Position numbers and translations under genes: made by a program. A stretch of 20,000 nucleotides of DNA from an uncultured virus (IMG/VR IMGVR_UViG_3300006204_000270) (lineage: Duplodnaviria > Heunggongvirae > Uroviricota > Caudoviricetes). The stretch lies in IMG/VR virus record IMGVR_UViG_3300006204_000270. The stretch is one strand, 5' to 3'. Shown here piece after piece: positions 1 to 18,369 of the stretch (position 1 is its first letter; each line of letters opens with the position of its first letter). A model generated the notes under the pieces. It searched no databases. It had not been told where the DNA came from and saw nothing but the letters and a program-made list of their open reading frames with translations.

Positions 1-164
1 TTTACCAGATTGCGCAGGCCCCGCAGGTCGCTTGGCGGTGAAATCCAGTCCGCCGCCGCGTAGACCTCCTGCTCTGTAACCTGCTGGGAGGTGTCCGCTT
101 TCTCGACGGGGGCCTGCTGCCATTTGATAATCCGCGCCCGTATCCCTCTTTTGGAATTAGCCAC
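1..164 (-). CDS. Portal protein, N-terminal part (runs off window)
   Basis: Manually translated from GTG at 164: MANSKRGIRARIIKWQQAPVEKADTSQQVTEQEVYAAADWISPPSDLRGLRNLV, open to window edge; overlaps terL stop; WIxPPxDLxGL resembles PBSX-type portal N-termini; position after terL. Confidence 0.7.
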   Translation of the reverse strand, partial: MANSKRGIRARIIKWQQAPVEKADTSQQVTEQEVYAAADWISPPSDLRGLRNLV

Positions 165-1563
165 TCTTTTTCACCCCTCTCTTTTTCGGTGGCTTGACTG
201 GCAAGCAAAGCAGCAGCACACAGTCCGCCTCGTCCGGGGAGGGCTGCCCTCTTTTCTTCACCGCGTCCTTGCTCTCAATCTTGATTTTGCTGGCCTCTGT
301 CAGCCCGTACTTTCGCCCGGAAAGCTGGGCCACGAGGTCGTCGTCGTCCGGGAGTATCAGCTCCACGGGCTTTCTGTTGCCCTCCTCGTCGTAGGGCTGT
401 AAAAGGTTCTTCACCACGGACATCATGTAGGTAGTGCTGTCGTGGTAGTATTTGTGTTTTATCCTCTGGCCGAACTTCACGGGGTAAATCTCAAGCCACC
501 AGAAACGCTCCGGGTCGCCTCGCTTGACCTGCCGGAGGCGGTCTACTACGCCGCCGCCCACGCCGCCGTCGTCCACCTTGACGGGAATGGGGGTCGTGAG
601 CTTGTACCTCTGCGCCAGCTCCTCCCCAAGCAGGATAATGTCGTCCGCCGTTTTCATGGTGTCCTGCCCCTGCCGCTTGCGGTAGAACGTGACCTTTTCG
701 TCCACCTTGTAGCCTATCACCGTCTTGTCGTCTCCAAATCGGGCCACGTCGCACCCGATATGCACCATAAGCGGGTTTTTCCGGGGAGAAAACTCTGTCA
801 TAATGGAGTTTTCGACGAGCGAAAGAGGTATAAAAATATCGTCCTCTTGGAGCGGGAACTCCCCAGCGACACGCACTCGGAACACGTCGCTGTCCTCCCC
901 GTACATTCGGGCGATAGTGTCTACGAAGTCCTGCGATACCCGGCTGCTGTTCCTGCCGTCGATGTGGAACGTCGAGTAGCTGGCCCTGTTTTTGTTATGG
1001 CTGTCGTAGAAAAAGCCGGAAAGCTGCGTCGGGTTCCCGCACATCAGGAGCCGCGCCCCCGGCGTAGAGAGCGAGCCGAGTACAGGCTCGAATATGTTGT
1101 CCTCTACGCCGCTGGCCTCGTCGATGATGTATAGGACGTGTTCTGCGTGAAAGCCCTGTAGCGCGTCCGGCTTGCTGGCCGTCCGCGCTACTGCAAACCA
1201 CTCCTCTGGGTAGCCCCGCATATAGACCTTTTCCTTTGTCCAGATAAGCTCATTCGATAGGGCCGAGTTGTGCCTTATCCACTTGCTGACCTCTGCCCAT
1301 AGAATGTCAAATAGCTGGTGCTGCGTCGGGGCCGTGCAGGGTATCTTGGGGAATGGGCGCGTCAGCATAAACCAGATAACCGCCCACGCCTCCACCGTGC
1401 TTTTCCCTACGCCGTGGCCGCTCCTCACGCTTGTCATGGTGTTTGCCTCCAAGCTACGGAGTATCTTTGCCTGCTCCGGGTCTGGCGTGGCCCCGATAAC
1501 GTCCTGCACAAATTCGACGGGGTGGCTGTTGTAAAACAGAATAGCCCGCTCTAAATCACTCAC
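157..1563 (-). CDS. terL: Terminase large subunit
   Basis: Walker A VRSGHGVGKS, Walker B YIIDEASG, coupling motif GNP, RNase H-like nuclease GCDVARFGDD and SPDEAD; start reassigned to GTG 1563 (RBS GGGAGG), overlapping terS end. Confidence 0.95.
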   Translation of the reverse strand: MSDLERAILFYNSHPVEFVQDVIGATPDPEQAKILRSLEANTMTSVRSGHGVGKSTVEAWAVIWFMLTRPFPKIPCTAPTQHQLFDILWAEVSKWIRHNSALSNELIWTKEKVYMRGYPEEWFAVARTASKPDALQGFHAEHVLYIIDEASGVEDNIFEPVLGSLSTPGARLLMCGNPTQLSGFFYDSHNKNRASYSTFHIDGRNSSRVSQDFVDTIARMYGEDSDVFRVRVAGEFPLQEDDIFIPLSLVENSIMTEFSPRKNPLMVHIGCDVARFGDDKTVIGYKVDEKVTFYRKRQGQDTMKTADDIILLGEELAQRYKLTTPIPVKVDDGGVGGGVVDRLRQVKRGDPERFWWLEIYPVKFGQRIKHKYYHDSTTYMMSVVKNLLQPYDEEGNRKPVELILPDDDDLVAQLSGRKYGLTEASKIKIESKDAVKKRGQPSPDEADCVLLLCLPVKPPKKRGVKKSG

Positions 1564-2050
1564 CGCCGTCGCCCTCCCTCTTTTGGAATACGGATATGAT
1601 CGCGTTCGCAAACTGGGCCGGGCCGCCGCCCGCGCCCTTTTCGGCCTCCTCCTCAAGCGTCCTGTTGAGCCGTTCAAGGTCGGTCGCCATCTTGATATAC
1701 TCCTTGATGTCTTTGGGGGTCATGTCCTCGACTGACAGGCTCGATAGGGCCTCAAGAGCTTTCTTTTGGAGCTGCATGGCTATCCCGATATGGCGCTCTG
1801 TCATGGCTTTGCGGTCGGCCACAACCTTTTTCCGGGCCTCCCGCTCAAGGTCGTTTTCGTAGGCCCTGACGCGCTCCTGCCATCCTTTGTCCCGGCTCCA
1901 ACGCTGAATAAGCGACGCACTCTTGCCCAACTTTTGCGCAACCGCTCTTGTACTCCGCTCCGCGCCCATGCTGAGATAGGTAGAAAAAGCCTCATACGCT
2001 TGTGCGCTCTCGCCCTTTTGACGCTCCCACGGCTTGTCAGTCTTTGGCAT
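1556..2050 (-). CDS. terS: Terminase small subunit
   Basis: N-terminal HTH (PWERQKGESAQAYEAF...STRAVAQKLGKSASLIQRWS...W.ER), helical oligomerisation region, directly upstream of terL; RBS GAGGAGG. Confidence 0.85.
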   Translation of the reverse strand: MPKTDKPWERQKGESAQAYEAFSTYLSMGAERSTRAVAQKLGKSASLIQRWSRDKGWQERVRAYENDLEREARKKVVADRKAMTERHIGIAMQLQKKALEALSSLSVEDMTPKDIKEYIKMATDLERLNRTLEEEAEKGAGGGPAQFANAIISVFQKREGDGGE

Positions 2051-2065: not shown

Positions 2066-2911
2066 TTATCGTTCTCGCGGCTCCGCCCCAACAATCCAAA
2101 AGAGAGCATTGTCTGTGTTGAGACCCTGCTCCAACAGGTATTTCATGGTCTTTGCCTCATACTGCGGGTGGAGCTTTAGCCCTCCTATACGCATTTTCTG
2201 CTGCTTTTCGTAGACAAAGCCCGGCGTATGGAAAAGGTCGTGGTAAATGAACTCCCGGCCTGCGCCGTATCGCTGGATAGTCGCCCGCACCTTTTCCCTG
2301 CGGTCGAACGCCGTGGATATGAGGTGAATGTTCTTCACTTTCTTCCCATATTTTTCCACACCGATAATCACGCCGCTGGCGGTTATCCCGCTCCCGCAGG
2401 TGATATAAAGGTCGTCGAGGTCGTCCGGGATATTCTGCACCTGTTCCGATACGGCACTCAAAAGCACCTCCCCGTAGTCGTCGAGGTTTATCCCGTACTG
2501 GACGAGGAACATTCCGCTCCGGGCCGCCAGCGCCTCCGCCTTTGCCTTGAGGACGTTGTGCCTGCCGCTTTTGGCTATCACTTCCACTCTGGCCCCGTAG
2601 CTCATGGCGAGCCGGGGCATAGCGCCTGTGGCGATTGCGTAGTCGCTGGCCCCCCCGTATGCCACAATGCAGGGTAGCCGATAGTGCCGGGCTGCTGCTG
2701 CCGTTATCGGCCCTTGCGGGGAGTGGATAGAGCAGTAGGTGATTATCCCCGTGGCCTCTGGTCTCCGCCGCAGTGCCGCCTCCACCAGTAGCATACACTG
2801 GCGCAGTTTCCCGCCGTTCACTCCTCCGGCCCCGAACGGGGCATATAGGTCGTCCCGCTTAAAGCGCATTCCGGCGATCTCCTGCACGGGGGTCAGGTCG
2901 TGGGCGTTCAT
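2066..2911 (-). CDS. PLP-dependent enzyme, fold type II (ACC deaminase/D-cysteine desulfhydrase-like)
   Basis: KRDDL...NGGKLRQ (PLP lysine motif), phosphate loop TCGSGITASG, LHPQYEAK matching the family LDPVYTGK motif; ATGA overlap with the radical SAM gene. Confidence 0.85.
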   Translation of the reverse strand: MNAHDLTPVQEIAGMRFKRDDLYAPFGAGGVNGGKLRQCMLLVEAALRRRPEATGIITYCSIHSPQGPITAAAARHYRLPCIVAYGGASDYAIATGAMPRLAMSYGARVEVIAKSGRHNVLKAKAEALAARSGMFLVQYGINLDDYGEVLLSAVSEQVQNIPDDLDDLYITCGSGITASGVIIGVEKYGKKVKNIHLISTAFDRREKVRATIQRYGAGREFIYHDLFHTPGFVYEKQQKMRIGGLKLHPQYEAKTMKYLLEQGLNTDNALFWIVGAEPRER

Positions 2912-3927
2912 TCCTCTGCCCCGAAAAGGCGCTTGTAGTATTCGGTCTTGCCTGCAAGCTCCTCCTGCATGAGGCCGTAGAAAGACTGGCCGTTGATTTT
3001 CTTGTTGATACCCGCTACCTGATTGAGGCTCTGGAAACAGCCGCCCGTCCCCACCTGTTTCATCAGCTCTGTCGGCTCCGGGCTTTTGCCGTTCACGAGC
3101 ATACAGAGGTTGTAGTCGTTCCCCTTAAAGCCCTCAAGCCCGTCTATCCCGCAGCACGTCATGCTGTCGCCCATTGGCCGCAGGCGGTTCTCCCCGGCGT
3201 AGAATTTCAGCCCGTGCCTGTGGCACTCCGCCCTGATGGCCTCGAAGTGTGGCCGCAGGACGCTCAATGGGTAGCAATGGTCGCCGCCGATTTTCACCAT
3301 GCCCTTTTTCCCCTTGTAGAATTTCATGCCCTCGACCACTACGCCGTAAACGCCTGCCGCCGCCAGCCGGGGGATATTCGCCATAACGTCTCTGAAAACC
3401 TCCGGCATATAGGGCTGTACCCGTACGATTACCCTCTGCACTCTGTGGGCGAGGGTTTCCACCATTTTCAGCCGCTCCTCGTAGGGCGGTGTCCCCGGTT
3501 CCAGCGGGTCGTACTTGCTGCATACCATGCTGATCTGCACGACGCAGTTGCTCTTTTCCAGCAGGTCGAGGTATTCCGGGTCTACGACGAGCCTGCCCTT
3601 TGTGCTGACGACGAATGGGTAGCGCGTCTCCGCCAGCAGCTTTAAGCACTCGTAGCTGGCCCGGATATTCTTCTCGATGGGCTGGAACGGGTCGCTCATG
3701 CCGCCCCAGTGAATGGGGATATTCCAGTCGCACCACGCCGTCTCCCGGCCCCGCTTGCCCTCGATGAACGAGCGCAGGGCCTCGACGCTCTCGTCCCGCT
3801 GTATCTTGGCAATGTTCTGTTTCTTCTGGGCGAAACAGTATTTGCACCCGTGGCTGCACCCCTTGTAGGTGTCAAAGCGCACGGGGAGGTTGCAGAGAAT
3901 GACCTGCGAGCCGCATTTGCACCCCAT
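2908..3927 (-). CDS. Radical SAM enzyme (spore photoproduct lyase-like clade)
   Basis: CxxxCxxC motif GCSHGCKYC preceded by DTYKG; GGMSDPFQPIE, STKG, LEPGTP..EERL, IVRVQP resemble SPL-like radical SAM proteins; extra Cys at N- and C-termini. Confidence 0.9.
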   Translation of the reverse strand: MGCKCGSQVILCNLPVRFDTYKGCSHGCKYCFAQKKQNIAKIQRDESVEALRSFIEGKRGRETAWCDWNIPIHWGGMSDPFQPIEKNIRASYECLKLLAETRYPFVVSTKGRLVVDPEYLDLLEKSNCVVQISMVCSKYDPLEPGTPPYEERLKMVETLAHRVQRVIVRVQPYMPEVFRDVMANIPRLAAAGVYGVVVEGMKFYKGKKGMVKIGGDHCYPLSVLRPHFEAIRAECHRHGLKFYAGENRLRPMGDSMTCCGIDGLEGFKGNDYNLCMLVNGKSPEPTELMKQVGTGGCFQSLNQVAGINKKINGQSFYGLMQEELAGKTEYYKRLFGAEE

Positions 3928-4497
3928 TTAGATTTCCCCCTTTACTTTCTGCATGATTACCTCGACAAGGGCCTCTTTGCCGTAGTCCTTGACGTAGGCT
4001 TTCAGCTCCTCTTGGTCTGCCTTGTCGAATTTGAGGCTGACGTTGAATAGCTCCTCGATGGCCCGCAGCTCCTCGTCCACGGTGTCGCCGTCGATAAGGC
4101 TGTCGATGTCGTTGGTGAGGCTGTCTATCTCCGCCTGCGTAAAGCCCGTGAGCGGCGCGTCGTCGCCCAGCTCCGCCAGCAGCAGGCCCAGCTTTTCCTC
4201 GTCCCAGCCGCCCTCGATTTTGTTGAGGGCCACGTTGAGCTGCCGCTCCTGCGTCTCGTCGAGGTCTACCACCGACACGTCCGCCTCTGCCTCCCCCTCG
4301 TTTTCGAGGACGGTGAGCCTCTGGTGGCCGCCGACTACCCTGTTGGTCTGCTTGTTCCAGACCACCGGGATAATCATGCCGTAGGTGAGAATGCTCCGGC
4401 GCAGGTTCTCGTACTCTGTGTCGCCGGGGATAAGGTCTATCCGGGGGTTGTATGCGGCCCTGTCCATGTCCGCGATTTTCTTCCGCACGATCTCCAC
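3928..4497 (-). CDS. ParB/Srx N-terminal domain protein (paralog 2)
   Basis: YNPR, LRRSI..YG...PVVWN, VVGGHQRL, LNVALNKIEGGWD; GTG start abuts upstream stop. Confidence 0.9.
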   Translation of the reverse strand: MEIVRKKIADMDRAAYNPRIDLIPGDTEYENLRRSILTYGMIIPVVWNKQTNRVVGGHQRLTVLENEGEAEADVSVVDLDETQERQLNVALNKIEGGWDEEKLGLLLAELGDDAPLTGFTQAEIDSLTNDIDSLIDGDTVDEELRAIEELFNVSLKFDKADQEELKAYVKDYGKEALVEVIMQKVKGEI

Positions 4498-5088
4498 TCA
4501 AATAACCCCCTTTACCCGGTTGATAATCGCCGTCGCCAGCTCCGTCTTTGCGTTCTCTGTCTGCTGGATATACTGCTCCACCGTCTCCCGCGCTCCCGCC
4601 GGGAGGCTGAATGTCATGGTGAATGTGTCGCGCTCTTTGCTGTCGCTGTAGCCGGAGAAGTCCTCCTCCATCAGGTCTTTGATGTGGTCGTACTGCATGA
4701 GGAGGCTTTGCAGCTCCCAATCCTCAAACCCCGTTACCTCCATCTCCCCGGCCTCGTCGAGCTGCTGCAAAAGGTCTGCCAGCTTGCCGATGTCCCAGCG
4801 GCCCTTAACCTTGTTCAGCAGGACGTTGAGGATTTTCTCGTCCTTTTCGTCGAGGTCTACGACGACGGCCTCGATGTCCTCCGCGCCCTTTTCCAGCAGC
4901 ACCTTGAGCCGCTGGTGGCCGCCCACGACGTTCCCGGTGCGCTCGTTCCAGATGATAGGTTCGATGTAGCCGAACGTCTCAATGCTCCGGCGGAGTTTCT
5001 GGTACTCCGCGTCCTCCGGCTGCAAGTCCCGCCGGGGATTGTAGGGGGCCGCCCTCAGTTGCGCCGCCTTTAGCGTCCGTATTTCCAT
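4498..5088 (-). CDS. ParB/Srx N-terminal domain protein (paralog 1)
   Basis: YNPR, LRRSIETFGYIEPIIWN, VVGGHQRL, LNKVKGRWD; RBS AAGGAG; first gene after the late promoter. Confidence 0.9.
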   Translation of the reverse strand: MEIRTLKAAQLRAAPYNPRRDLQPEDAEYQKLRRSIETFGYIEPIIWNERTGNVVGGHQRLKVLLEKGAEDIEAVVVDLDEKDEKILNVLLNKVKGRWDIGKLADLLQQLDEAGEMEVTGFEDWELQSLLMQYDHIKDLMEEDFSGYSDSKERDTFTMTFSLPAGARETVEQYIQQTENAKTELATAIINRVKGVI

Positions 5089-5131
5089 ATTTCCTCTCCT
5101 TTCTGTCCCTTTCCGCGTCGGAAATCCCCGT

Positions 5132-5170
5132 AAAAAATCGCCGCCCGATGGAAATTCCCATTAGGCGGCG
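5132..5170 (-). terminator. Intrinsic terminator/attenuator in late-operon leader
   Basis: Minus strand CGCCGCCTAATGG-GAATTT-CCATCGGGCGGCG followed by ATTTTTT. Confidence 0.7.
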
Positions 5171-5197
5171 TTTTCGCTCCGTGATTTTACAGGTTAC

Positions 5198-5254
5198 AGT
5201 ATAGCACATTTCATAGTGTCCTGTAAATGCCCGGTTTGTGCCTTTGCCTGTGTC
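5198..5254 (-). promoter_or_regulatory. Putative late promoter with upstream short repeats
   Basis: Extended -10 TGCTATACT (TATACT 5198-5203), weak -35 TTTACA (5222-5227, 18-nt spacer), three GGCA repeats at 5228-5248, right after the regulator stop. Confidence 0.6.
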
Positions 5255-5933
5255 ACGGGTTTTCAATGCCGCCTACCCCAAAAAACAGGGCCGTCAAATC
5301 CGCCACACATACGTCTATGTCCTTGTATACCGTGCGTTTGTCGATATGTTCTCTCTGGGCGATTGCCTCCGCCGTGGTATAGCTGTCTGCGAGGTAAAGC
5401 CCCTCCAACACGCGCCAGTGCCTTGCGTCGTCTGGCCTGCTCGACCGCTCGCACATGATTTTGTAGCAGTCCAGCATTTTGTTCACATGGGTCATTATGA
5501 TTTTGGTGGTGGCGTAGCTTTTCTGAATGCTCTCGACGATGATCTCCTCGTCTGCCACCCGGCCCATGCTCCGCATGATGTCCCCGAAATCCTCGTCCGC
5601 CTCCTCTGCGGCCTCTGTGCTGAACACGGCGTTCTCGTAGTAGGCGTTGAGCCGCCTGTAATTCCGTAGGAGGAGTTTGGTGTTGTGGTATTTCCAGTCA
5701 TACTGCTGCTGCCGGATTTTCTTGCGCTCCCGCTCCGCCGCTTTCACCGCTGCTGCGGCCCCGGTTTCCGCTCCGATTTTGCTGCCAACCTCCGCCCCTA
5801 TTTTTATTCCTATGGGCAGGGCGAGGTTTATGGCGGCCTGTATCTTCTCGTCCATGCCCCTTATCCCGGCCTCATGCGCCGCCGCGACCGCCGCCTCAAT
5901 CAATGCCTGTATGTCCAGCTCGCTTTCGTTCAT
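5253..5933 (-). CDS. Phage late transcriptional regulator (ArpU/RinA-like position, C-terminal HTH)
   Basis: YHNTKLLLRNYR N-terminal motif and sigma-4-like HTH TAEAIAQREHIDKRTVYKDI; last gene before the packaging operon; start reassigned to ATG 5933 (RBS AAGGAGG). Confidence 0.75.
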   Translation of the reverse strand: MNESELDIQALIEAAVAAAHEAGIRGMDEKIQAAINLALPIGIKIGAEVGSKIGAETGAAAAVKAAERERKKIRQQQYDWKYHNTKLLLRNYRRLNAYYENAVFSTEAAEEADEDFGDIMRSMGRVADEEIIVESIQKSYATTKIIMTHVNKMLDCYKIMCERSSRPDDARHWRVLEGLYLADSYTTAEAIAQREHIDKRTVYKDIDVCVADLTALFFGVGGIENP

Positions 5934-5986
5934 AGAGATAACTCCCTCCTTTGTTGCTTGGTATGGGAGTTGCCTCCCGCCCTGCC

Positions 5987-6130
5987 TCAAGGCCAGTCCC
6001 AATAGTCTGTGTCGTCCTCGTGCTCCCGCCACTCCGGGTCGTTTTTCATCTTGTCGATAGCGTTCACCCACGGTATTGCTATCGCTACCGCAATGGCCGT
6101 GGATAGCACTATCGCCACAACTATGCCCAC
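5987..6130 (-). CDS. Small single-pass membrane protein (47 aa; absent from ORF track)
   Basis: GTG 6130 after GAGGAGG: MGIVVAIVLSTAIAVAIAIPWVNAIDKMKNDPEWREHEDDTDYWDWP; fills the gap between recU and the regulator. Confidence 0.6.
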   Translation of the reverse strand: MGIVVAIVLSTAIAVAIAIPWVNAIDKMKNDPEWREHEDDTDYWDWP

Positions 6131-7332: not shown

Positions 7333-7692
7333 TCAGTATTCCACCCGGCGGAGAATGCTCTCCGGCAAGCTGGGGAACATAGTGCAGAGGAAACTGTACT
7401 GCTCCTCCGGCTCCATGCCCTCCGCATAGTCAAGTATGCCGTCCAGCATGGCCGGGGCCAGTGTGCAGTTGTCGCCGGGGACGTTGTAGTTATCGTAAAT
7501 CCACTGCCGGAACTCGTCTTTGCTCATGATCTGCTCCTTTTCCTTGCTCTCTACCGCTTGCAGGATTTTGACCGCCTCCCGCAAGACCTCTGCGTCGTGA
7601 ACGAAAATGCTGTCCGGGTCGTCTTTCTCGATGAAACTCTCCCGGTCTAAAATAAGCTCGTTCAGCCCGTCGATAATCTCCTTGAGCGTCAT
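7333..7692 (-). CDS. Hypothetical phage protein (possible two-ORF fusion)
   Basis: ATG 7692 overlaps DUF5131 stop (ATGA); internal RBS AAGGAG plus in-frame ATG at 7527. Confidence 0.65.
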   Translation of the reverse strand: MTLKEIIDGLNELILDRESFIEKDDPDSIFVHDAEVLREAVKILQAVESKEKEQIMSKDEFRQWIYDNYNVPGDNCTLAPAMLDGILDYAEGMEPEEQYSFLCTMFPSLPESILRRVEY

Positions 7693-8486
7693 ACCTGCTG
7701 CGCCCCTTTCTCCCACGGCAGCTCCCGACGCATATTCACCTTGCCGACGATGGGCTTGAGGCTGTCTTTCATAAAGACCGACGCGCTGGTGAGGTCTGCC
7801 GCCTCGCAGATATTGTCCACCCACGCTTTCTCCGGGGTGATCTTCCCGGCCCGGTTCCCCGTCTCCGCCCCGATGATGATAAGGCGGTCGCCGCCGAAAC
7901 TGCCGAGGCCCACGTCCAAGTATTCGTGCAGGGGTTCTATGCTCAAAAACGTGTTGAGGCTGATTGTCCCGTTAAATCTCTGGCTGCTCTTGCTGGTGAT
8001 CGTGCTGCCATACCAGAAATTGTTCCGGCGGGGGAGGAGGGCCAGCCTGTCAAGCTGGGCATACCTCTGTGGGTTCTTGGTGAGGAACATATATCGGTGC
8101 TGCGGGGCCGCCTCGCAAGCGTCCAGCACCTCCACTATCCATCGGGTCGGCACCCACGGGCCGAAAAGGTCGGCCATACTGCACACGAAAATGGTCTGCG
8201 GCTCCCGGCGGTGCTGCGGTTCGTCCAGCCTATAGCGGTGGAGTGTCGGCTCAAAGCCAAAGGGGAACGGGGAGTTGACCGTTTTCCCGTTCTGCCGTGT
8301 GATGGTGAGGGGCTGGTGAAGTTCGGCGCGGGGGAGCGGGTTGTGCGTCGTGACGCTCCCGTCGCTGCTGTCGTAGCCTCCAAACCGGGCGGCAATCCGC
8401 CGGGCGTAGCAATACTCGCACCCATGCTTGCAACCCGTGACCGGGTTCCATGTGCTGTCGCACCATTCGATGTTGCTTTTCTGCAT
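7689..8486 (-). CDS. DUF5131 / phage Gp37-Gp68 family protein (radical-SAM-like three-Cys motif)
   Basis: SNIEWCDSTWNPVTGCKHGCEYCYA, IFVCSMADLF, FLTKNP, FLSIEPL, IIGAETG, VFMK; start ATG 8486 (or 8492). Confidence 0.9.
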   Translation of the reverse strand: MQKSNIEWCDSTWNPVTGCKHGCEYCYARRIAARFGGYDSSDGSVTTHNPLPRAELHQPLTITRQNGKTVNSPFPFGFEPTLHRYRLDEPQHRREPQTIFVCSMADLFGPWVPTRWIVEVLDACEAAPQHRYMFLTKNPQRYAQLDRLALLPRRNNFWYGSTITSKSSQRFNGTISLNTFLSIEPLHEYLDVGLGSFGGDRLIIIGAETGNRAGKITPEKAWVDNICEAADLTSASVFMKDSLKPIVGKVNMRRELPWEKGAQQV

Positions 8487-8488
8487 TG

Positions 8489-8977
8489 TCATGGCTCCTT
8501 TCTGCTCTGCGGTTTCATAAAGCAGAGCCAATGTGTGCTGTTGTTCTTCCCACTCCTGTTTCCGAATAGGGGCGGATAGGGGGAGAGGGGAAGTATCTCC
8601 CGCAAAGGCACCTGTATCTCCGACCACTTGAAAATCAGTACCCCGTCGTCGTCCAGAACTCGAAAGCACTCCTCAAACCCCTTTCGGAGCATTTCTTTCC
8701 AGTCTCCCTTGAGTACGCCATATTTCATAGCAGTCCACGAGCTTTCTCCTGCCCGCTTGAGGTGCGGCGGGTCAAAGACGGCTAATTTGTAAGCGCCGTC
8801 CGGGAACGGGAGCGCGGTAAAGTCGCATACCGTGTCTGGCGAAATCTCGATGTATCGCCCCGGATAATACTCCTGGCGTTCTATCGCCCGCTTGTCGCAA
8901 AATTCCACGTCCGGGTTGTCTTTGTCAAACCAGAACATTTTGCTGCCGCAAGCTACGTCTATCACCCGCTTTTCCAC
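8489..8977 (-). CDS. Small class I SAM-dependent (amino-type DNA) methyltransferase
   Basis: Motif I IDVACGSKMFWF, motif IV-like FDPPHL, ECFRVL..GVLIFKW; GTG start with RBS AAGGAGG. Confidence 0.85.
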   Translation of the reverse strand: MEKRVIDVACGSKMFWFDKDNPDVEFCDKRAIERQEYYPGRYIEISPDTVCDFTALPFPDGAYKLAVFDPPHLKRAGESSWTAMKYGVLKGDWKEMLRKGFEECFRVLDDDGVLIFKWSEIQVPLREILPLSPYPPLFGNRSGKNNSTHWLCFMKPQSRKEP

Positions 8978-10782: not shown

Positions 10783-11688
10783 TTAGTCCGAAATGGTGAC
10801 GTAGGTGTCCCCGCGCCTGTTCAGCGTCAAGTCTACCGGGCTGCCGCAGTTCAGGCACGGCCACTCGAATGTGCCGTCCGTGACGTTCGTCCTGTAGTTG
10901 AACGTGCTGCCGCATTTGCACTTGAGGTGGAGCGGCTTGAGGTCGTGCAGCTCCGTCGTGTGGCCGCATTTGCAGGTATTCCGGGTGATGGGGGTCTTGG
11001 CACAAAACGCTCTGATTTCCCCGCACTGCTCGCACCTGATAATCAGAAAGCCCTTGTAGGCCTCCGGCTCTCGCTGCGGCTCCGGCTTTTTCGGCTCTAC
11101 CGTTTTGCTGGCCTTGAAATCCCCGAACATACGCTCCACACGGCTCTGCGGCCTCCCTTTAGCCTGCGGCGCTTTGGGCGGCTCCTGCGCTACGGGAGGG
11201 GCCTCCTGCGCCACTTTGGGCGCTGCCGTCTCCTGCCCGGCGGCATACTGGAAAGCCCTCTGTATGAGGTCTGTCGCCCGCTCCGGCGGCATATCGAATT
11301 TCATTTCCCCGAACGGGGTCGCCAATGTTATCTGCATATCGTTTCCTCCTGTCCTGTGTATTCCGAGGCTCTTTGTGAGGGCCTTTTCGATGTTGTGCAT
11401 TTCCTCCGCCGTGACGCTCCCGATGTGCCGTTGGAGCCTGCTCTTGCATACCGTGACGATCTGCTCGCAGAGGGCGATTGACGGCTTTTCTGCCGAGCCG
11501 ATATAGACGTGTGTGGGGAGGCTCGCTTTCTTTCTGGTGGTGAGGTAGACCAACTCGACGATAGGGGCGTGTCTGTTCCCCAAGTCGTTGCTGACTATGA
11601 CCGCCGGGCGGTCTGCGTTCTGCTCGCTGCCCGTCGCCATTCCGCCGACAACATAGAAGATGTCGCCGCGCTTTACGTTCGCTGCCGT
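10783..11688 (-). CDS. MazF/PemK-like domain fused to multi-zinc-ribbon domain
   Basis: KRGDIFYV...GSEQNADRPAVIVSND...LTT...SIALCEQIVTV..SRL PemK motifs; C-terminal CEQC, CKC, CKC, CLNC; RBS-appropriate codon at 11688 is ACG, first ATG at 11640. Confidence 0.8.
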   Translation of the reverse strand, partial: TAANVKRGDIFYVVGGMATGSEQNADRPAVIVSNDLGNRHAPIVELVYLTTRKKASLPTHVYIGSAEKPSIALCEQIVTVCKSRLQRHIGSVTAEEMHNIEKALTKSLGIHRTGGNDMQITLATPFGEMKFDMPPERATDLIQRAFQYAAGQETAAPKVAQEAPPVAQEPPKAPQAKGRPQSRVERMFGDFKASKTVEPKKPEPQREPEAYKGFLIIRCEQCGEIRAFCAKTPITRNTCKCGHTTELHDLKPLHLKCKCGSTFNYRTNVTDGTFEWPCLNCGSPVDLTLNRRGDTYVTISD

Positions 11689-14493: not shown

Positions 14494-17400
14494 TTACTCG
14501 TAAATAACCTTGCTGCCCTCCGGCGTTTTCACCACGTCAACGCTCTGGGGAAATCTCGACTTCATGGCCGGGTCGTGCGTGATCGCCATGACCTTGAGGC
14601 CGTCGTACCTCTGCTGGATTGCCTCAAGCGCGTCGCAGTACGCCTGCACTCCGGGGCTGTCGAGGAAAGGCGGTTCGTCGATAAAGAGAAATCCCAACTG
14701 CACCCCGGCCTTGCTGCTCTTGATCTCCGAGAGGGCGAGAATGACCGAGAGGGCCGCCTTGACGCGCTCGCCTCCGCTCCGGCTCATGTAGGGGAGCCGC
14801 CCGGTGTCGCTGTCGTTGATGATGATGTCGAGGGTCGTGACCTCTTTCTTGCTGTTGGATTTCAGCACCTTTTCCGTCACGAACTCCACGCTCATGCGTC
14901 CCTGCGACATCTGGCCGAGAATGTTGGTCGCCGTTGCCTCGAATACCGGGATAATGCTGCGAATGATGTTGTGGGGTATGCCGTCCTGCGAGAAAGCCTT
15001 TTTCAGCTCCTCGTACCCGGCGGCCTGCACACCCAGCACGTTCACCTGCTCTTGGCATTCCGCCGCCTGCTTGAGGGCAAGCTGCACCTGCTCCCGCTTT
15101 GCCCGCAGCCCGCCGATTTGGAAATCCGCCTGCCGTGCCGCGTCCTGCATGGCCTTGATTTCCGCCTCTGCCGCGTCTACCTGCGCTTGCAGCTCCTCTC
15201 TGCCGACAGTCTTGCCCTGCTCCTCTGCCAGCTCCTCCCGCGCCTCAGCGATCTCCCGGTCGATGTCCTCGACCTCTGCGTCCAGCTCAAGGAGGCGCTG
15301 CGCTGCCGCCGCCTTTTTCTCCCGCGCCACGGGGAGCTGCCGCTCTTTGTCTGTCCACTGCCGGGCCACGGCGATTTCGGCTTGCAGGCGGTCGTAGTCC
15401 GCGCTGGCCGCCGCGACGCTTTGGAGCTGCTGCTCAATCCCGGCCAGCTCTGTCCGGCCCTTTTCGGCGGTAGCCTCTGCGTCGGAAACGGCCTTTTCCA
15501 GCTCTGCGGCCCGCTCCTCCATCAGCGTCAGCTCGCTCCTCTGCGCCTCAAGGCTGTGGTACTCCCTTTCGGCGGCCTCAAGGAGGCGCTGGGAGGCCCG
15601 CAGAGAGGCGATTTCCTCCGGGACGTGTTTCTTGTCGTCATAGGCCCTTTGCGCCAGAGAGAGGCCCGCAGAGGCCGTCTGGCGGCTTTTCTGGTACTCT
15701 ACGTTGAGCGCAACCAGTTCTTCTTCTTTGTCGTGGACTGCACCTTTGGCTGCAACCGCGTCAGCAAGGAATTTGCATGTGGCTATAGCCTCGATTGGGC
15801 ACCCGCTGTTGTTCAGCAGCTCCACCTTTCCATTGAGTGTGGAGATATTCTGCTCAATCCGCGTCCGGGCGGCTGTGTAGTCGCGCTCAAGGCGCTCCAC
15901 CTCCGCCTGCGCCGCCGCGAGGCCGTCCTTTGCCGCCGTGTACTCTGGCATGAGCTTTTCCAGCTCCGCGAGCCTGCTGGCCGCCGCCTCGTACTCCGCG
16001 TGTTTCCCTGCCAGCTCCGCCGCCCGTGCGAGGGCCTGCTGCAAGGGGCCAATCTTCATCAACGTAATGGCCGCCTTTTTCTGCCGCATTTCCTGCGCCG
16101 AGCTTTCCGCCAGCGTGATCGCGTCGGCAATCTGCTGTCGCCGGGCGGTAAGGTTGTCGTAGGCGGCCTTGCCCTTTATCAGCTCTTTCTCCCGCTCCAA
16201 CAGGCGGCCCAGCTCTGCCACGCCTGCGGTGATCTCCGGCTCTGCCGCGAGTATGGTGTCTGCGGCTGTGATAAGCCCTACCTGCGCGGTCTTTGCGGCC
16301 TCTTTGGCGGCTTTCTGGCCCGTGAGTGAGGTGAGCTTGCTGTTGAGCCGCATAACCCGGCCCGCCGCCTCAAGCTGCGTGTTGAGCTTGACCTTGAGGC
16401 TGTCCACGGCTGCCGCCTTTTCCCGCGCCGCCGCCTCATAGCTGCTCCGGCACTCCTCTTGGTGCTTGAGCTGTGCGTCCAGCTCCGCGCTGTCCGGCAA
16501 TCCTGCGGTGATGGTGTCCACCTTGTCCATCAGGGCGCGGATTGTGCGGTTTGTCTCTGTGACCTTGTCCGCCGCCAGCTCCTCCATGCCCCCGTAAATC
16601 CCCAGCCCCAAAATGCTGCCGAGGATATTCATGCGGGCCTCTTTGTCCGCTTGGAGGAATAGGCCGTACTGGTCTTGCATGATAAGGGCGCAGGCTTTGA
16701 GTGTCAGGCTGTCCATGCCGATGATGTTGATGATCTCCTGCTGTGTGTCCTTGAACTTCTCTTTGCTGCGGTCTACCCACTCGCCCTCGACCTGCTCCGC
16801 GATATTCAGCGTGGCCTTTCCGCTTTTCTGCCGGGTGCGCGTCACGCGGTAGAGGCGGTCTCCCAGCTTGAACGTGAATTTGATAGCCCCGCTCCGAGCG
16901 TCCGGGGCGTTGCAAATCCAGCCCGTCAGCTCGCCCTCTCGCGGCTCCTCGTAGAGCGCGTCCAGCATAGCGTCCATGAATAGGCTGCTCTTGCCCACGC
17001 CGTTGCTGCCGTTGATGGTGCAAAACCGAATACCGTCAAAGGTAAAACGCTCCTCCCGGTAGTTGCGGTAGTTCTTGACCTCGATTTCCACCGGGACGAA
17101 TACTCCCGTATGCCGCTCCTGCGCGGCCTTTTCCGTGGCCTCCGCAATGATGGGCCGGGCCAGCTCCACCAGTTGCCCAACGCGCTCCGGCTCCATGCCC
17201 TTTTCTGCGAGGTAGTCGGTAAGGTTCCCCTCCGGGGTGCTGTCTGCGTCCATGCTCCGGCGGTCTACCGTGATGGTAATTTTCTGCGGGGTGATCTCCT
17301 GCACCCAAAAGGCTCCGGCCCGGTAGAGCGCATTTTCGTAGGCCGCGTGATTGAAAGCCTTGTTATGCTCGTCTGTGCAGTCGTAGAGGACGCGCACGAT

Positions 17401-18369
17401 TTTCCCTTTTACCTCCTCCGCCTGCTCATGCGTAAGGAGCCAGCCGTCGTTGTCCTGCGGGGCGTTCAGTATCAGCGCCTCTACGTCGCCGTCCTTGAGG
17501 CGAATGGTCTTGTACTGCCGCGTGGGGAGCTGCTGGAATGTGGAAGTGACCGCGCCGCTGTCGTCGATGTCGTGTATGTAGTAGCCGCGCTGCTGGCCCT
17601 CGTCGTTGAAGTTGAGCGCCGAGATCGCGCCGCAGTAGAACGTGTTCTTGCAGCCGTCGAGCTGCTGGGGGCGGTGGATATGGCCGAAACAAACGAGGTC
17701 GAAGTCCGCCGCCGCGAGCGTGGAGGGGTAGACCACAGGCTCGAACTGGCTGAAAAATGCCGTCTGGCCGCTCTCCATGTTGCAGCCCGTGATGGTGAAG
17801 TGAGATACCAGCACCGTCGGTGCGCCTGCGTCGCACTGCGCCTTGAGGCCCATAACGATGTCCTCCACGGCTTTGGTGAACACCTCGTTTTCCTCCTCCT
17901 TGGAGAGGCCGGGGTGCTTTGCCCGGTAGTAGCCTCGGTCAAATCCGGGGACGCAGGCGATTTGGATTTTCTTTCCGTGCCTATAGCCGTAGTAGGTCGA
18001 TACCCCCGGCTCTGCCACGATATGTACGCTGTCGTCTCCGGCGAATGTACTTTCCAGCGTGGCAAACTGCTCCGCGCTGTCGTGATTGGGGGTGCCGCGC
18101 ATAACCACCACGGGGCAAACGTCCGAAAACTCCCGCAGGAATTTCACCGCCGTCTGCTGCTCCTTGAGGCCCCGGTCGCTCCAAACGCGGGCCTGATGGA
18201 AGATGTCTCCGGCGATAACGGCAATGTCCGGCTGCTGCTTTTTGGCCCCGGCCACCAGTGCGTCGAGGCACTTGCAGATGTCCAGATACCGGGCGTTCTC
18301 TCCGCCCCGCTCCGGGCCGGGGAATGAGCCGATGTGCAGGTCGCCCGTGTGCAATACTCTGATACCCAT
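14494..18369 (-). CDS. SbcD(Mre11)-SbcC(Rad50) single-chain fusion nuclease/ATPase
   Basis: Phosphoesterase motifs HTGDLH, AGDIFH, GTPNHD, SH, FGHIH; Walker A GSNGVGKS, Q-loop IMQDQY, long coiled coil, signature SGGE, Walker B FIDE, H-loop ITHD in one uninterrupted frame. Confidence 0.93.
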   Translation of the reverse strand: MGIRVLHTGDLHIGSFPGPERGGENARYLDICKCLDALVAGAKKQQPDIAVIAGDIFHQARVWSDRGLKEQQTAVKFLREFSDVCPVVVMRGTPNHDSAEQFATLESTFAGDDSVHIVAEPGVSTYYGYRHGKKIQIACVPGFDRGYYRAKHPGLSKEEENEVFTKAVEDIVMGLKAQCDAGAPTVLVSHFTITGCNMESGQTAFFSQFEPVVYPSTLAAADFDLVCFGHIHRPQQLDGCKNTFYCGAISALNFNDEGQQRGYYIHDIDDSGAVTSTFQQLPTRQYKTIRLKDGDVEALILNAPQDNDGWLLTHEQAEEVKGKIVRVLYDCTDEHNKAFNHAAYENALYRAGAFWVQEITPQKITITVDRRSMDADSTPEGNLTDYLAEKGMEPERVGQLVELARPIIAEATEKAAQERHTGVFVPVEIEVKNYRNYREERFTFDGIRFCTINGSNGVGKSSLFMDAMLDALYEEPREGELTGWICNAPDARSGAIKFTFKLGDRLYRVTRTRQKSGKATLNIAEQVEGEWVDRSKEKFKDTQQEIINIIGMDSLTLKACALIMQDQYGLFLQADKEARMNILGSILGLGIYGGMEELAADKVTETNRTIRALMDKVDTITAGLPDSAELDAQLKHQEECRSSYEAAAREKAAAVDSLKVKLNTQLEAAGRVMRLNSKLTSLTGQKAAKEAAKTAQVGLITAADTILAAEPEITAGVAELGRLLEREKELIKGKAAYDNLTARRQQIADAITLAESSAQEMRQKKAAITLMKIGPLQQALARAAELAGKHAEYEAAASRLAELEKLMPEYTAAKDGLAAAQAEVERLERDYTAARTRIEQNISTLNGKVELLNNSGCPIEAIATCKFLADAVAAKGAVHDKEEELVALNVEYQKSRQTASAGLSLAQRAYDDKKHVPEEIASLRASQRLLEAAEREYHSLEAQRSELTLMEERAAELEKAVSDAEATAEKGRTELAGIEQQLQSVAAASADYDRLQAEIAVARQWTDKERQLPVAREKKAAAAQRLLELDAEVEDIDREIAEAREELAEEQGKTVGREELQAQVDAAEAEIKAMQDAARQADFQIGGLRAKREQVQLALKQAAECQEQVNVLGVQAAGYEELKKAFSQDGIPHNIIRSIIPVFEATATNILGQMSQGRMSVEFVTEKVLKSNSKKEVTTLDIIINDSDTGRLPYMSRSGGERVKAALSVILALSEIKSSKAGVQLGFLFIDEPPFLDSPGVQAYCDALEAIQQRYDGLKVMAITHDPAMKSRFPQSVDVVKTPEGSKVIYE

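Follow-up and report, generated by a model that had tools for sequence, protein, structure and literature searches.

The cassette described here lies at positions 2066-5088 of a 20,000-nucleotide stretch of DNA, referred to below as the window, from an uncultured Caudoviricetes virus (IMG/VR record IMGVR_UViG_3300006204_000270). It encodes two ParB-like proteins, a radical S-adenosylmethionine (SAM) enzyme (rSAM) and a pyridoxal 5'-phosphate (PLP) enzyme, and its probable function is to give the phage's own DNA a chemical mark not yet described. In the sense of transcription, the genes are as follows.

4498-5088, minus strand: ParB1, 196 aa; PF02195 match at E 9.2e-08, above the gathering score
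3928-4497, minus strand: ParB2, 189 aa, GTG start; paralogue of ParB1
2908-3927, minus strand: rSAM enzyme, 339 aa, ATG start; spore-photoproduct-lyase-like, COG1533 group
2066-2911, minus strand: PLP enzyme, 281 aa; fold-type II, family of ViI gp226 and M6 gp52

A first-pass annotation of the window had described these as four genes that abut or overlap, and the open reading frames (ORFs) and their junctions, read directly, bear this out. The TGA stop of ParB1 (4500-4498) directly abuts the GTG of ParB2 (4497-4495), the TAA stop of ParB2 (3930-3928) directly abuts the ATG of the rSAM gene (3927-3925), and an ATGA at 2911-2908 holds both the PLP start and the rSAM stop. This arrangement is not due to chance: 79-80 of 80 viral loci show the genes in this order.

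The PLP enzyme matched PF00291 (E 3e-09) and phrog_3650 (E 1.7e-44), and its AlphaFold2 (AF2) model had a pLDDT of 90. The Schiff-base lysine, K35 (NGGKLRQ), and a CGSGIT loop (172-177) are invariant in 18 homologues. The protein family aligned with gp226 of phage ViI (hhalign 99.8%, E 2.8e-30, 260 columns), with family-specific motifs common to both, and the window protein matched gp52 of phage M6 over its full length (BLASTP E 6e-06), with K35 opposite K36. By tblastn, 348 phage records were matched, 347 of them over at least 80% of the query length. These are mainly Salmonella, Klebsiella, Escherichia and Dickeya phages of ~155 kb (mostly Ackermannviridae-type), plus Vibrio phages; the match in Salmonella phage Vi01 is orf00226 (gp226; E 2e-19, 97% of the query covered). 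The homologue in Glutamicibacter phage Montesquieu adjoins aGPT-Pplase2, kinases and a pyrimidine hydroxymethylase.

In Mycobacterium phage Vincenzo (L235, 1-5800), gp1 (479 aa) matches methyltransferases weakly, gp2 is a PLP homologue that carries the annotation 'nucleoside deaminase', and gp4 is annotated as adenylate kinase/terS yet strongly matches Ploopntkinase3 (E 1.6e-72). All three lie directly before terL, and the region may be an unrecognised hypermodification cluster. The PLP frame is split into two overlapping reading frames in five loci re-fetched with PLP as anchor (L023, L024, L430, L439 and L459), either by frameshift or nonsense mutation or by sequencing error, and shortened PLP clusters of 179-202 aa are also common.

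The rSAM enzyme carries a C24-x3-C28-x2-C31 motif that is kept in all of 17 close and all of 41 diverse homologues. The CxxxCxxC, the PLP lysine and the glycine loop had all been recorded as intact in the first pass, and all proved to be invariant among homologues as well. C12, C258 and C259 are also invariant across the 41 diverse homologues and would be compatible with a second (auxiliary) cluster. The match to PF04055 (27.5 bits, E 4.2e-06) falls under the gathering cut-off of 29.5, and most close homologues carry a precomputed PF04055 listing. Matches to NCBIfam PA0069 (E 2.1e-16) and Rv2578c (E 7e-16), of the 'DNA repair photolyase' group, were both far under their cut-offs. The family aligned with M6 gp53 (hhalign 98.1%, E 1.3e-13) over 181 core columns at 21% identity. 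The AF2 model (pLDDT 85.2) shares the partial TIM-barrel fold of solved rSAM enzymes and had 42 PDB matches at E <= 0.001, the top ones being rSAM enzymes with spore photoproduct lyase (SPL; SplB, 4fhc) first (Foldseek E 3.2e-06, TM 0.52); the two share the CxxxCxxC rSAM core. In contrast, a profile search of PDB sequences gave no SPL match and a single match in all, to SkfB at E 0.26. The window enzyme differs further from SplB in its conserved cysteines and in its phage late-operon context with ParB and PLP genes. Relatives are numerous, with 1357 clusters at 90% identity (E <= 0.001) and 3100 at 50% identity, 244 of these with E below 1e-30. Species with a named homologue include Faecalispora jeddahensis, Anaerotruncus colihominis and Clostridium sp. 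D33t1_170424_F3. Among cultured or deposited phages, tblastn gave only two partial matches, both to faecal phage contigs.

ParB1 consists of a ParB/Srx-fold N-terminal domain and a C-terminal domain of ~100 aa, and ParB2 is similarly built. The two are 40% identical (BLASTP E 7e-42). Both match phrog_620 (ParB1, E 3.9e-40; ParB2, E 1.1e-40) and phrog_498, the N-terminal part of ParB-methyltransferase fusions (ParB1, E 7.8e-40). ParB2 had no Pfam match at E <= 0.01. The motifs YNPR and GGHQR are invariant in 16 ParB1 homologues, and ParB2 has conserved motifs too. No helix-turn-helix (HTH) family was detected in either protein, and the ParB_N and phrog_620 matches are confined to the N-terminal part.

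Both cassette enzymes have counterparts of known activity. In phage M6, the PLP decarboxylase gp52 and the SPL-like rSAM isomerase gp53 convert N-alpha-glycinylthymine to 5-(2-aminoethyl)uridine (5-NedU), and in phage ViI the PLP-dependent decarboxylase gp226 converts O-serinylthymine in DNA to 5-(2-aminoethoxy)methyl-2'-deoxyuridine (5-NeOmdU) (Lee et al., NAR 2021, PMC8989533). According to that paper, decarboxylation of amino acids attached to thymine in DNA is biochemically proven for gp226 and gp52, and gp53 is the sole rSAM enzyme reported there as installing a DNA modification. The gp226, gp52 and gp53 profile and BLASTP matches therefore indicate, at the level of sequence, that the rSAM and PLP enzymes of the window are homologues of a proven DNA-hypermodifying pair. 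The likeness to M6 drawn in the first pass was sound in this respect; the roles need to be fixed, gp52 being the PLP enzyme and gp53 the rSAM enzyme. The comparison with gp52 and gp53 that it had proposed, made by profile alignment and BLASTP, found both enzymes homologous. Its comparison with SPL and D-cysteine desulfhydrase held for the nearest solved folds and failed for PDB sequences, which gave no SPL match for the rSAM enzyme and no match at E <= 0.01 for the PLP enzyme.

As in M6, an SPL-like rSAM gene adjoins one for a ~280-aa fold-type II PLP enzyme. M6 gp53 also appears to hold two Fe-S clusters (PMC8989533), and the window rSAM family has extra invariant cysteines. The systems differ in that M6 requires 5-hydroxymethyldeoxyuridine (5-hmdU) DNA, the kinase gp54 and the glycine:DNA transferase gp51, counterparts of which were not detected in the window or in the near-identical record G001 introduced below. 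The window rSAM enzyme is without the 118-residue N-terminal extension of gp53 and is ~21% identical over the core. The two genes stand in the opposite order, no ParB partner is annotated in the M6 cluster, and the window's phage is temperate with an anaerobic Firmicute host. With ViI, the window shares the PLP protein family; gp226 differs in its length of 424 aa with insertions and in acting downstream of kinases and aGPT-Pplase on 5-hmdU DNA, and according to PMC8989533 ViI has no rSAM homologue.

Three surveys of gene linkage were performed. The first was anchored on the rSAM gene in IMG/VR (262 relatives found, 80 loci examined), the second on the same gene in species-representative genomes (86 relatives, 80 loci examined) and the third on the PLP gene in IMG/VR (91 relatives, 79 loci examined, 67 with >=1.3 kb upstream). 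Among the 80 viral rSAM loci, ParB2 was present in 80, ParB1 in 79, terS in 75, terL in 65 and PLP in 53; in the 27 loci without PLP, terS begins 30-150 nt past the rSAM gene, and several of their contigs, when re-fetched with PLP as anchor, show the split PLP frame noted above. In the genome survey, a ParB-like ORF lay directly upstream of the rSAM gene in 74 of 80 loci and PLP was present in 9. These matches are mostly from gut, rumen and sediment anaerobes, namely Clostridia, Collinsella, Eggerthellaceae, Bacteroidales, Elusimicrobia, Planctomycetes and Victivallis. Conversely, 66 of the 67 PLP loci with enough flank had the rSAM gene, 63 of them with ParB too, and L460 had neither. The ParB-rSAM linkage is kept down to ~30% rSAM identity. 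In 34 more distant viral loci (~40-59% rSAM identity), the ORF just upstream matched Pfam ParB_N in 15 and PLP was present in 5; in most of the other distant viral loci, an unassigned ORF of 200-245 aa lies just upstream of the rSAM gene.

A tree of 143 unique rSAM sequences (55 with PLP, 88 without) requires at least 19 changes of PLP state, compared to a mean of 43.9 (range 37-51) in 100 label shuffles. From the linkage counts and the tree changes, the conserved core is ParB(-ParB)-rSAM, and PLP is a dependent tailoring gene that has been repeatedly gained or lost. The four-gene unit proposed in the first pass stands as to its core, and not as to its PLP member, which is optional. Such asymmetric dependence of PLP on rSAM is what a tailoring step acting downstream would be expected to show.

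The cassette lies between a putative late-gene regulator and terS. This slot was assessed in a terL-anchored survey of relatives at 60-90% identity, which yielded 63 loci with >4.5 kb upstream. It held rSAM and PLP genes in 19, an rSAM match without PLP in 27 and neither in 17; eight of the 27 were COG1533-type rSAM proteins of 435-471 aa at 22-26% identity, and one was a remnant. Fourteen terL loci were scanned with Pfam and NCBIfam from the regulator to terS. Three (L277, L278 and L280) carry ParB_N, one or two TET-associated glycosyltransferases (TAGT) and a different rSAM enzyme; L288 carries TAGT and rSAM ORFs, the only two scanned there; and L250 and L267 combine rSAM-SPASM, TAGT, ParB_N and a COG1533-type rSAM, with partial versions in L297 and L261. 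The slot of L256 holds a ParB-N6/N4 methyltransferase fusion, an amidoligase and GGACT, that of L284 three ParB_N proteins and a methyltransferase, and that of L295 two ParB proteins and nothing else. L251, L298 and L305 had no such genes there. These results indicated that the slot is an exchangeable DNA-modification locus (a hot-spot) that is dispensable for packaging and is not packaging machinery, because close terL relatives hold other modification genes or nothing at this position.

The eight TAGT carriers (L277, L278, L280, L288, L250, L267, L297 and L261) have terL 73-87% identical and are without a TET/JBP gene. One of the rSAM enzymes in these phages is MoaA/SPASM-like, and the other is a 435-471-aa PA0069/Rv2578c-type relative of the window rSAM.

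Other neighbours were found further afield. Distant members lie near Mom (L161 and L207) and PAPS reductase (L159). The order in L187 is ParB, PLP, rSAM, SAM synthetase (MetK) and ParB; in L450, a 99.8-kb contig of 30% GC, it is rSAM, SAM synthetase (MetK) and GNAT, with PLP further on; and in L455, a 105-kb contig, it is C5 cytosine methyltransferase, intein-bearing ThyX, PLP and rSAM, with dUTPase further on.

The window derives from a temperate prophage of a gut bacterium, an anaerobic Firmicute, and is 98.2% identical to a 46.7-kb viral record (G001; CheckV 77% complete) that carries a serine integrase. Pfam, PHROG and NCBIfam searches of the window and of G001, from the serine integrase to the tape-measure gene, detected none of the following: a thymidylate-synthase-like hydroxymethylase, a P-loop 5-hmdU kinase, aGPT-Pplase and TET/JBP; nor was a DNA polymerase found among the G001 ORFs of that range. 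The earlier statement that the window has no 5-hmdU kinase, amino-acid:DNA transferase or hydroxymethylase is thus extended to the near-identical record, and the scan for transferase genes in the remaining phage returned none in those 46.7 kb, that is, in a record 77% complete. A route through 5-hmdU was rejected because the hydroxymethylase, the Ploopntkinase-type kinase, aGPT-Pplase and TET/JBP are all absent among the ORFs of the window and G001. It also seems that a temperate phage dependent on host replication could not plausibly fill its own DNA with 5-hmdU. The chemistry must start either from DNA of canonical bases or with a gene located in the quarter of the phage that the record does not cover.

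A role for ParB proteins in DNA modification has precedents. One subclass of phage thymine dioxygenases requires a cognate ParB-like activator on double-stranded DNA (5mYOX176/ParB176; O'Toole et al., PNAS 2026, PMC13229309). In that paper, the activator is described as having a nucleotide-binding domain and a C-terminal domain with no obvious DNA-binding domain, the dioxygenase step is proposed as priming for hypermodification, and the dioxygenase genes co-occur with glycosyltransferases (31%), ParBs (27%) and terminases (19.2%). Compared by domain description, both systems encode a small ParB-like protein beside a post-replicative base-modifying enzyme, often near terminase or glycosyltransferase genes. 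They differ in that the partner there is an O2-dependent Fe(II)/2-oxoglutarate dioxygenase whereas here it is an oxygen-sensitive rSAM enzyme in phages of mostly anaerobic hosts, and in that the window has two ParB paralogues instead of one. Aravind and co-workers have proposed that ParB directs modification enzymes to DNA during packaging, as cited by Burke et al. (PMC8256090).

We consider it reasonably probable that the cassette is a DNA base modification module in which the PLP enzyme acts as a tailoring decarboxylase. The phage-encoded cassette heads the packaging gene block, and the module would be post-replicative and oxygen-independent and would act late in infection. The ParB1/ParB2 pair would load or activate the rSAM enzyme on replicated double-stranded DNA, by analogy with the ParB activators of thymine dioxygenases. 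The rSAM enzyme would be the priming enzyme: reductive cleavage of SAM, with no need of oxygen, would give a 5'-deoxyadenosyl radical that abstracts a hydrogen atom at or next to a base flipped out of the duplex. SPL has a DNA substrate and a catalytic Cys/Tyr hydrogen-atom relay, and performs radical chemistry at the thymine methyl or methylene. The most plausible target would be the C5-methyl of thymine, because the radical reactions of SPL and M6 gp53 take place at that position. The adduct formed would bear an amino acid; the candidate donors are glycine or another amino acid bound at a second cluster, or else the aminocarboxypropyl moiety of SAM. The SAM synthetase genes next to related rSAM genes are in keeping with heavy SAM use and do not discriminate between these donors. 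Where present, the gp226/gp52-type PLP enzyme would decarboxylate the DNA-tethered amino acid to the corresponding amine. The first pass had likewise proposed that the pair modifies phage DNA with ParB as loader; the homologies and the ParB precedent (PMC13229309) speak for it, and the modification itself is what we infer by analogy.

Several points weigh against a decarboxylating DNA modification module. Nothing in the analysis directly shows a modified base. Free amino acids are the substrates of the enzymes whose solved folds come closest to that of the PLP enzyme, which is itself ~24-32% identical to the decarboxylases. Similarity between the rSAM enzyme and gp53 is limited to the rSAM core (~180 columns, 21% identity), and reaction type is not conserved that far. 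Most rSAM loci are without PLP, so that the core product need not be an amino-acid adduct, and the source of the amino-acid moiety is unexplained without a transferase. The phage record is 77% complete, and its unseen part (tail end and lysis genes) could hold further genes. ParB-rSAM and ParB-PLP fusion proteins, considered as evidence of contact, were dropped and give no support, since they look like assembly chimeras or single sequences. In clusters P0070, P0075, P0091 and P0094, one rSAM C-terminal part (from ~residue 42, without CxxxCxxC) sits on unrelated N-termini that are DnaC-like, ParB-like or portal-like, and these are probably metagenome assembly chimeras; the fusions P0021 and P0222 are single sequences.

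A bolder version of this mechanism is put forward tentatively, as possible and on balance doubtful. The ParB-loaded SPL-family rSAM enzyme may be an anaerobic counterpart of the ParB-dependent TET/JBP thymine dioxygenases that makes a base like glycinylthymine (GlyT) or NedU directly from thymine. The C5-methyl of thymine (or of 5-methylcytosine) would be activated in finished double-stranded DNA through abstraction of a hydrogen atom and coupled directly to a partner such as glycine or a SAM-derived aminocarboxypropyl group, with no 5-hmdU, kinase or aGPT-Pplase needed, and the product of the window cassette, reached by an entirely new route, would resemble C-alpha-GlyT or 5-aminoethyl-uracil. 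Tailoring enzymes would then diversify the mark: the gp226-type PLP enzyme here, and TAGT, GNAT acetyltransferases or Mom in sister cassettes.

Alternatively, ParB and rSAM might modify DNA while the PLP enzyme supplies or couples a small molecule, for example through beta-elimination of cysteine or serine to sulfide or an aminoacrylate that is then coupled to the group made by the rSAM enzyme, or as a Dnd-like sulfur supply. Fold-type II PLP enzymes typically perform beta-elimination or beta-replacement, and the top PDB folds for the PLP model are D-cysteine desulfhydrase (4d8t, E 9.6e-13, TM 0.76) and an ACC deaminase homologue (1j0a). An auxiliary cluster of the kind that C12, C258 and C259 could hold is known in sulfur-inserting rSAM enzymes. 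Dnd systems themselves include a PLP desulfurase alongside a ParB-superfamily protein and an Fe-S enzyme (PMC10853773). Nevertheless, the gp226 profile match is far stronger than any desulfhydrase sequence match: the PLP enzyme scored 34 bits against NCBIfam ACC_deam_rel, which has a cut-off of 289, and had no PDB sequence match at E <= 0.01. A supplier would moreover be expected to be as conserved as the core, and PLP is lacking in 27 of the 80 viral loci and 71 of the 80 genome loci. As for sulfur supply, the window PLP enzyme is of fold-type II and DndA is a cysteine desulfurase of fold-type I, and neither DndA nor DndC (PP-loop), DndD or DndE families were found in the window or G001. We regard a supplying PLP enzyme as unlikely, and a Dnd-like sulfur system was weighed and ranked low.

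It is more unlikely still that the module serves host takeover or counter-defence by making or destroying a small molecule, such as a nucleotide analogue, a signal or a cofactor, and leaves phage DNA untouched, with the ParBs as NTPases or kinases. Viperin-type rSAM enzymes do make nucleotide analogues, and SAM synthetase adjoins rSAM in L187 and L450. The ParB/Srx-fold includes NTPases and kinases (PMC10853773), and a related ParB had a weak SerK-like match. However, the characterised relatives of all three components act on DNA, the slot is common to DNA methyltransferase, Mom and TAGT genes, and the position is fixed at the start of the packaging block.

SPL-type repair by the rSAM enzyme, with the ParBs as packaging or partition factors and PLP as an unrelated auxiliary metabolic gene, was likewise ranked low and is very improbable, for although the best solved fold is SPL and many hosts are Clostridia, the PDB search found SkfB and no SPL, the rSAM family extends to non-spore-formers such as Collinsella, Bacteroidales, Elusimicrobia and Planctomycetes, tight translational coupling with ParB genes and the 66/67 PLP-rSAM linkage are unexpected for unrelated genes, and close terL relatives without ParB genes argue that the ParBs are not packaging factors.

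A DNA base modification module with a tailoring PLP enzyme would be a system of an already known kind, phage DNA hypermodification, and the cassette is well supported as a conserved functional module. Three things are new: a PLP partner of the gp226/gp52 type, useful as a handle on the chemistry; the statistics on asymmetric dependence; and the sister cassettes with TAGT and rSAM. A literature search found no published description of a ParB-rSAM(-PLP) cassette, and the terms radical SAM, rSAM, terminase and DNA modification are all absent from Kaljevic et al. 2025 (PMC12704722).

If the proposed mechanism is true, a ParB-coupled rSAM route would be a way for phages of strict anaerobes to decorate canonical DNA after replication. 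To our knowledge, all described thymidine hypermodification pathways start from 5-hmdU, made before replication or by O2-dependent dioxygenases. The cassette would also be a second DNA-modifying radical SAM chemistry, with new base chemistries for biotechnology. The family is common (262 viral contigs, 86 species-representative genome matches in several anaerobic phyla and the 1357 clusters at 90% identity), and therefore gut-phage DNA may often bear a mark with effects on restriction, sequencing and CRISPR targeting. With its optional PLP gene, the family provides a natural plus/minus comparison, for which a difference of 44 Da (loss of CO2) is predicted. By nominal mass, the C-alpha-GlyT nucleoside is 315 u and 5-NedU 271 u, against 242 u for dT (PMC8989533); an aminocarboxypropyl adduct derived from SAM would add 101 Da to a canonical nucleoside, or 57 Da once decarboxylated.

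The window covers the early-to-late region of the temperate phage, with all genes on the minus strand. In the sense of transcription, the cassette is preceded by genes for a RecT-like protein, a fused SbcD/SbcC-like nuclease, a replication initiator, a DnaC-like loader, MazF-like, MazG-like and DUF6273 proteins, a DNA methyltransferase, DUF5131 and ProQ-C-like proteins, RecU and the putative late regulator; then come ParB1, ParB2, rSAM, PLP, terS and terL. The features that flank the cassette are as follows.

5253-6071, minus strand: putative late-gene regulator, 272 aa; phrog_1558 E 3.4e-46; HTH_11 E 0.0027, under the Pfam cut-off
5198-5227, minus strand: sigma-70-like promoter match TTTACA-18-TATACT with upstream TG; 10/12 positions agree
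5131-5170, minus strand: terminator-like hairpin GCCGCCU...GGGCGGCG followed by the U-run AUUUUUUA, between the promoter-like site and ParB1
1556-2050, minus strand: terS, terminase small subunit; phrog_6299 E 8.1e-34
157-1677, minus strand: terL, terminase large subunit; phrog_5902 E 1.5e-66, phrog_2 E 2.2e-41

We infer that the product of 5253-6071 is a late-gene regulator. A homologue stands at the equivalent position in 58 of 80 related loci, and its counterparts in more distant loci have sigma-70 region 4 or DUF1492 matches. The late promoter that the first pass had placed upstream of the cassette is, at 5198-5227, a consensus match only and not above chance for the region: three promoter-like sites were observed there versus 2.1 expected from shuffles. 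The fold of 5089-5200 has an energy of -36.3 kcal/mol (z -2.83), and 2 of 200 shuffles were equally stable. The promoter-like site, then the strong hairpin (5170-5139) and U-run, all lie 5' of the ParB1 ribosome-binding site (5131-5227, minus strand). The hairpin could attenuate the late operon or serve as its antitermination point, or it could end transcription of the regulator gene or upstream operon. On the other side, terS lies 3' of the cassette in 75 of 80 viral loci. The listed terL start is a TTG that overlaps terS by 122 nt; relatives align from ~residue 20-45 on, and the real start is probably further downstream.

Several other genes were observed in passing. At 7689-8977 (minus strand), a DNA methyltransferase (8489-8977; phrog_954 E 4.7e-65, DPPH motif) abuts or overlaps the DUF5131 (Gp37/Gp68) protein. 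Close to where this protein probably starts (~8490) is a C-x3-C-x2-C motif, and the protein scores E 5.4e-28, far under the cut-off, against TIGR04471, 'radical SAM mobile pair protein A'. Among the 80 related loci, DUF5131 occurs in 19 and a methyltransferase of the 8489-8977 type in 1. The two genes may form a second DNA-modification module. The gene at 10783-11640 (minus strand) encodes a 285-aa protein with an N-terminal PemK/MazF-like toxin domain (PF02452 E 3.7e-21) and a Cys-rich C-terminal half; no obvious antitoxin was noticed close by. The SbcD/SbcC fusion at 14494-18369 (minus strand) is one 1291-aa protein that joins an SbcD-like metallophosphoesterase to an SbcC/SMC-like ATPase, and its neighbour, a 346-aa protein whose Cys pairs resemble a Zn ribbon, matched no family. 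Finally, an HNH/NUMOD4 homing-endonuclease-like gene lies among the tail genes of the near-identical record (L006:334-852, equal to G001 40334-40852).

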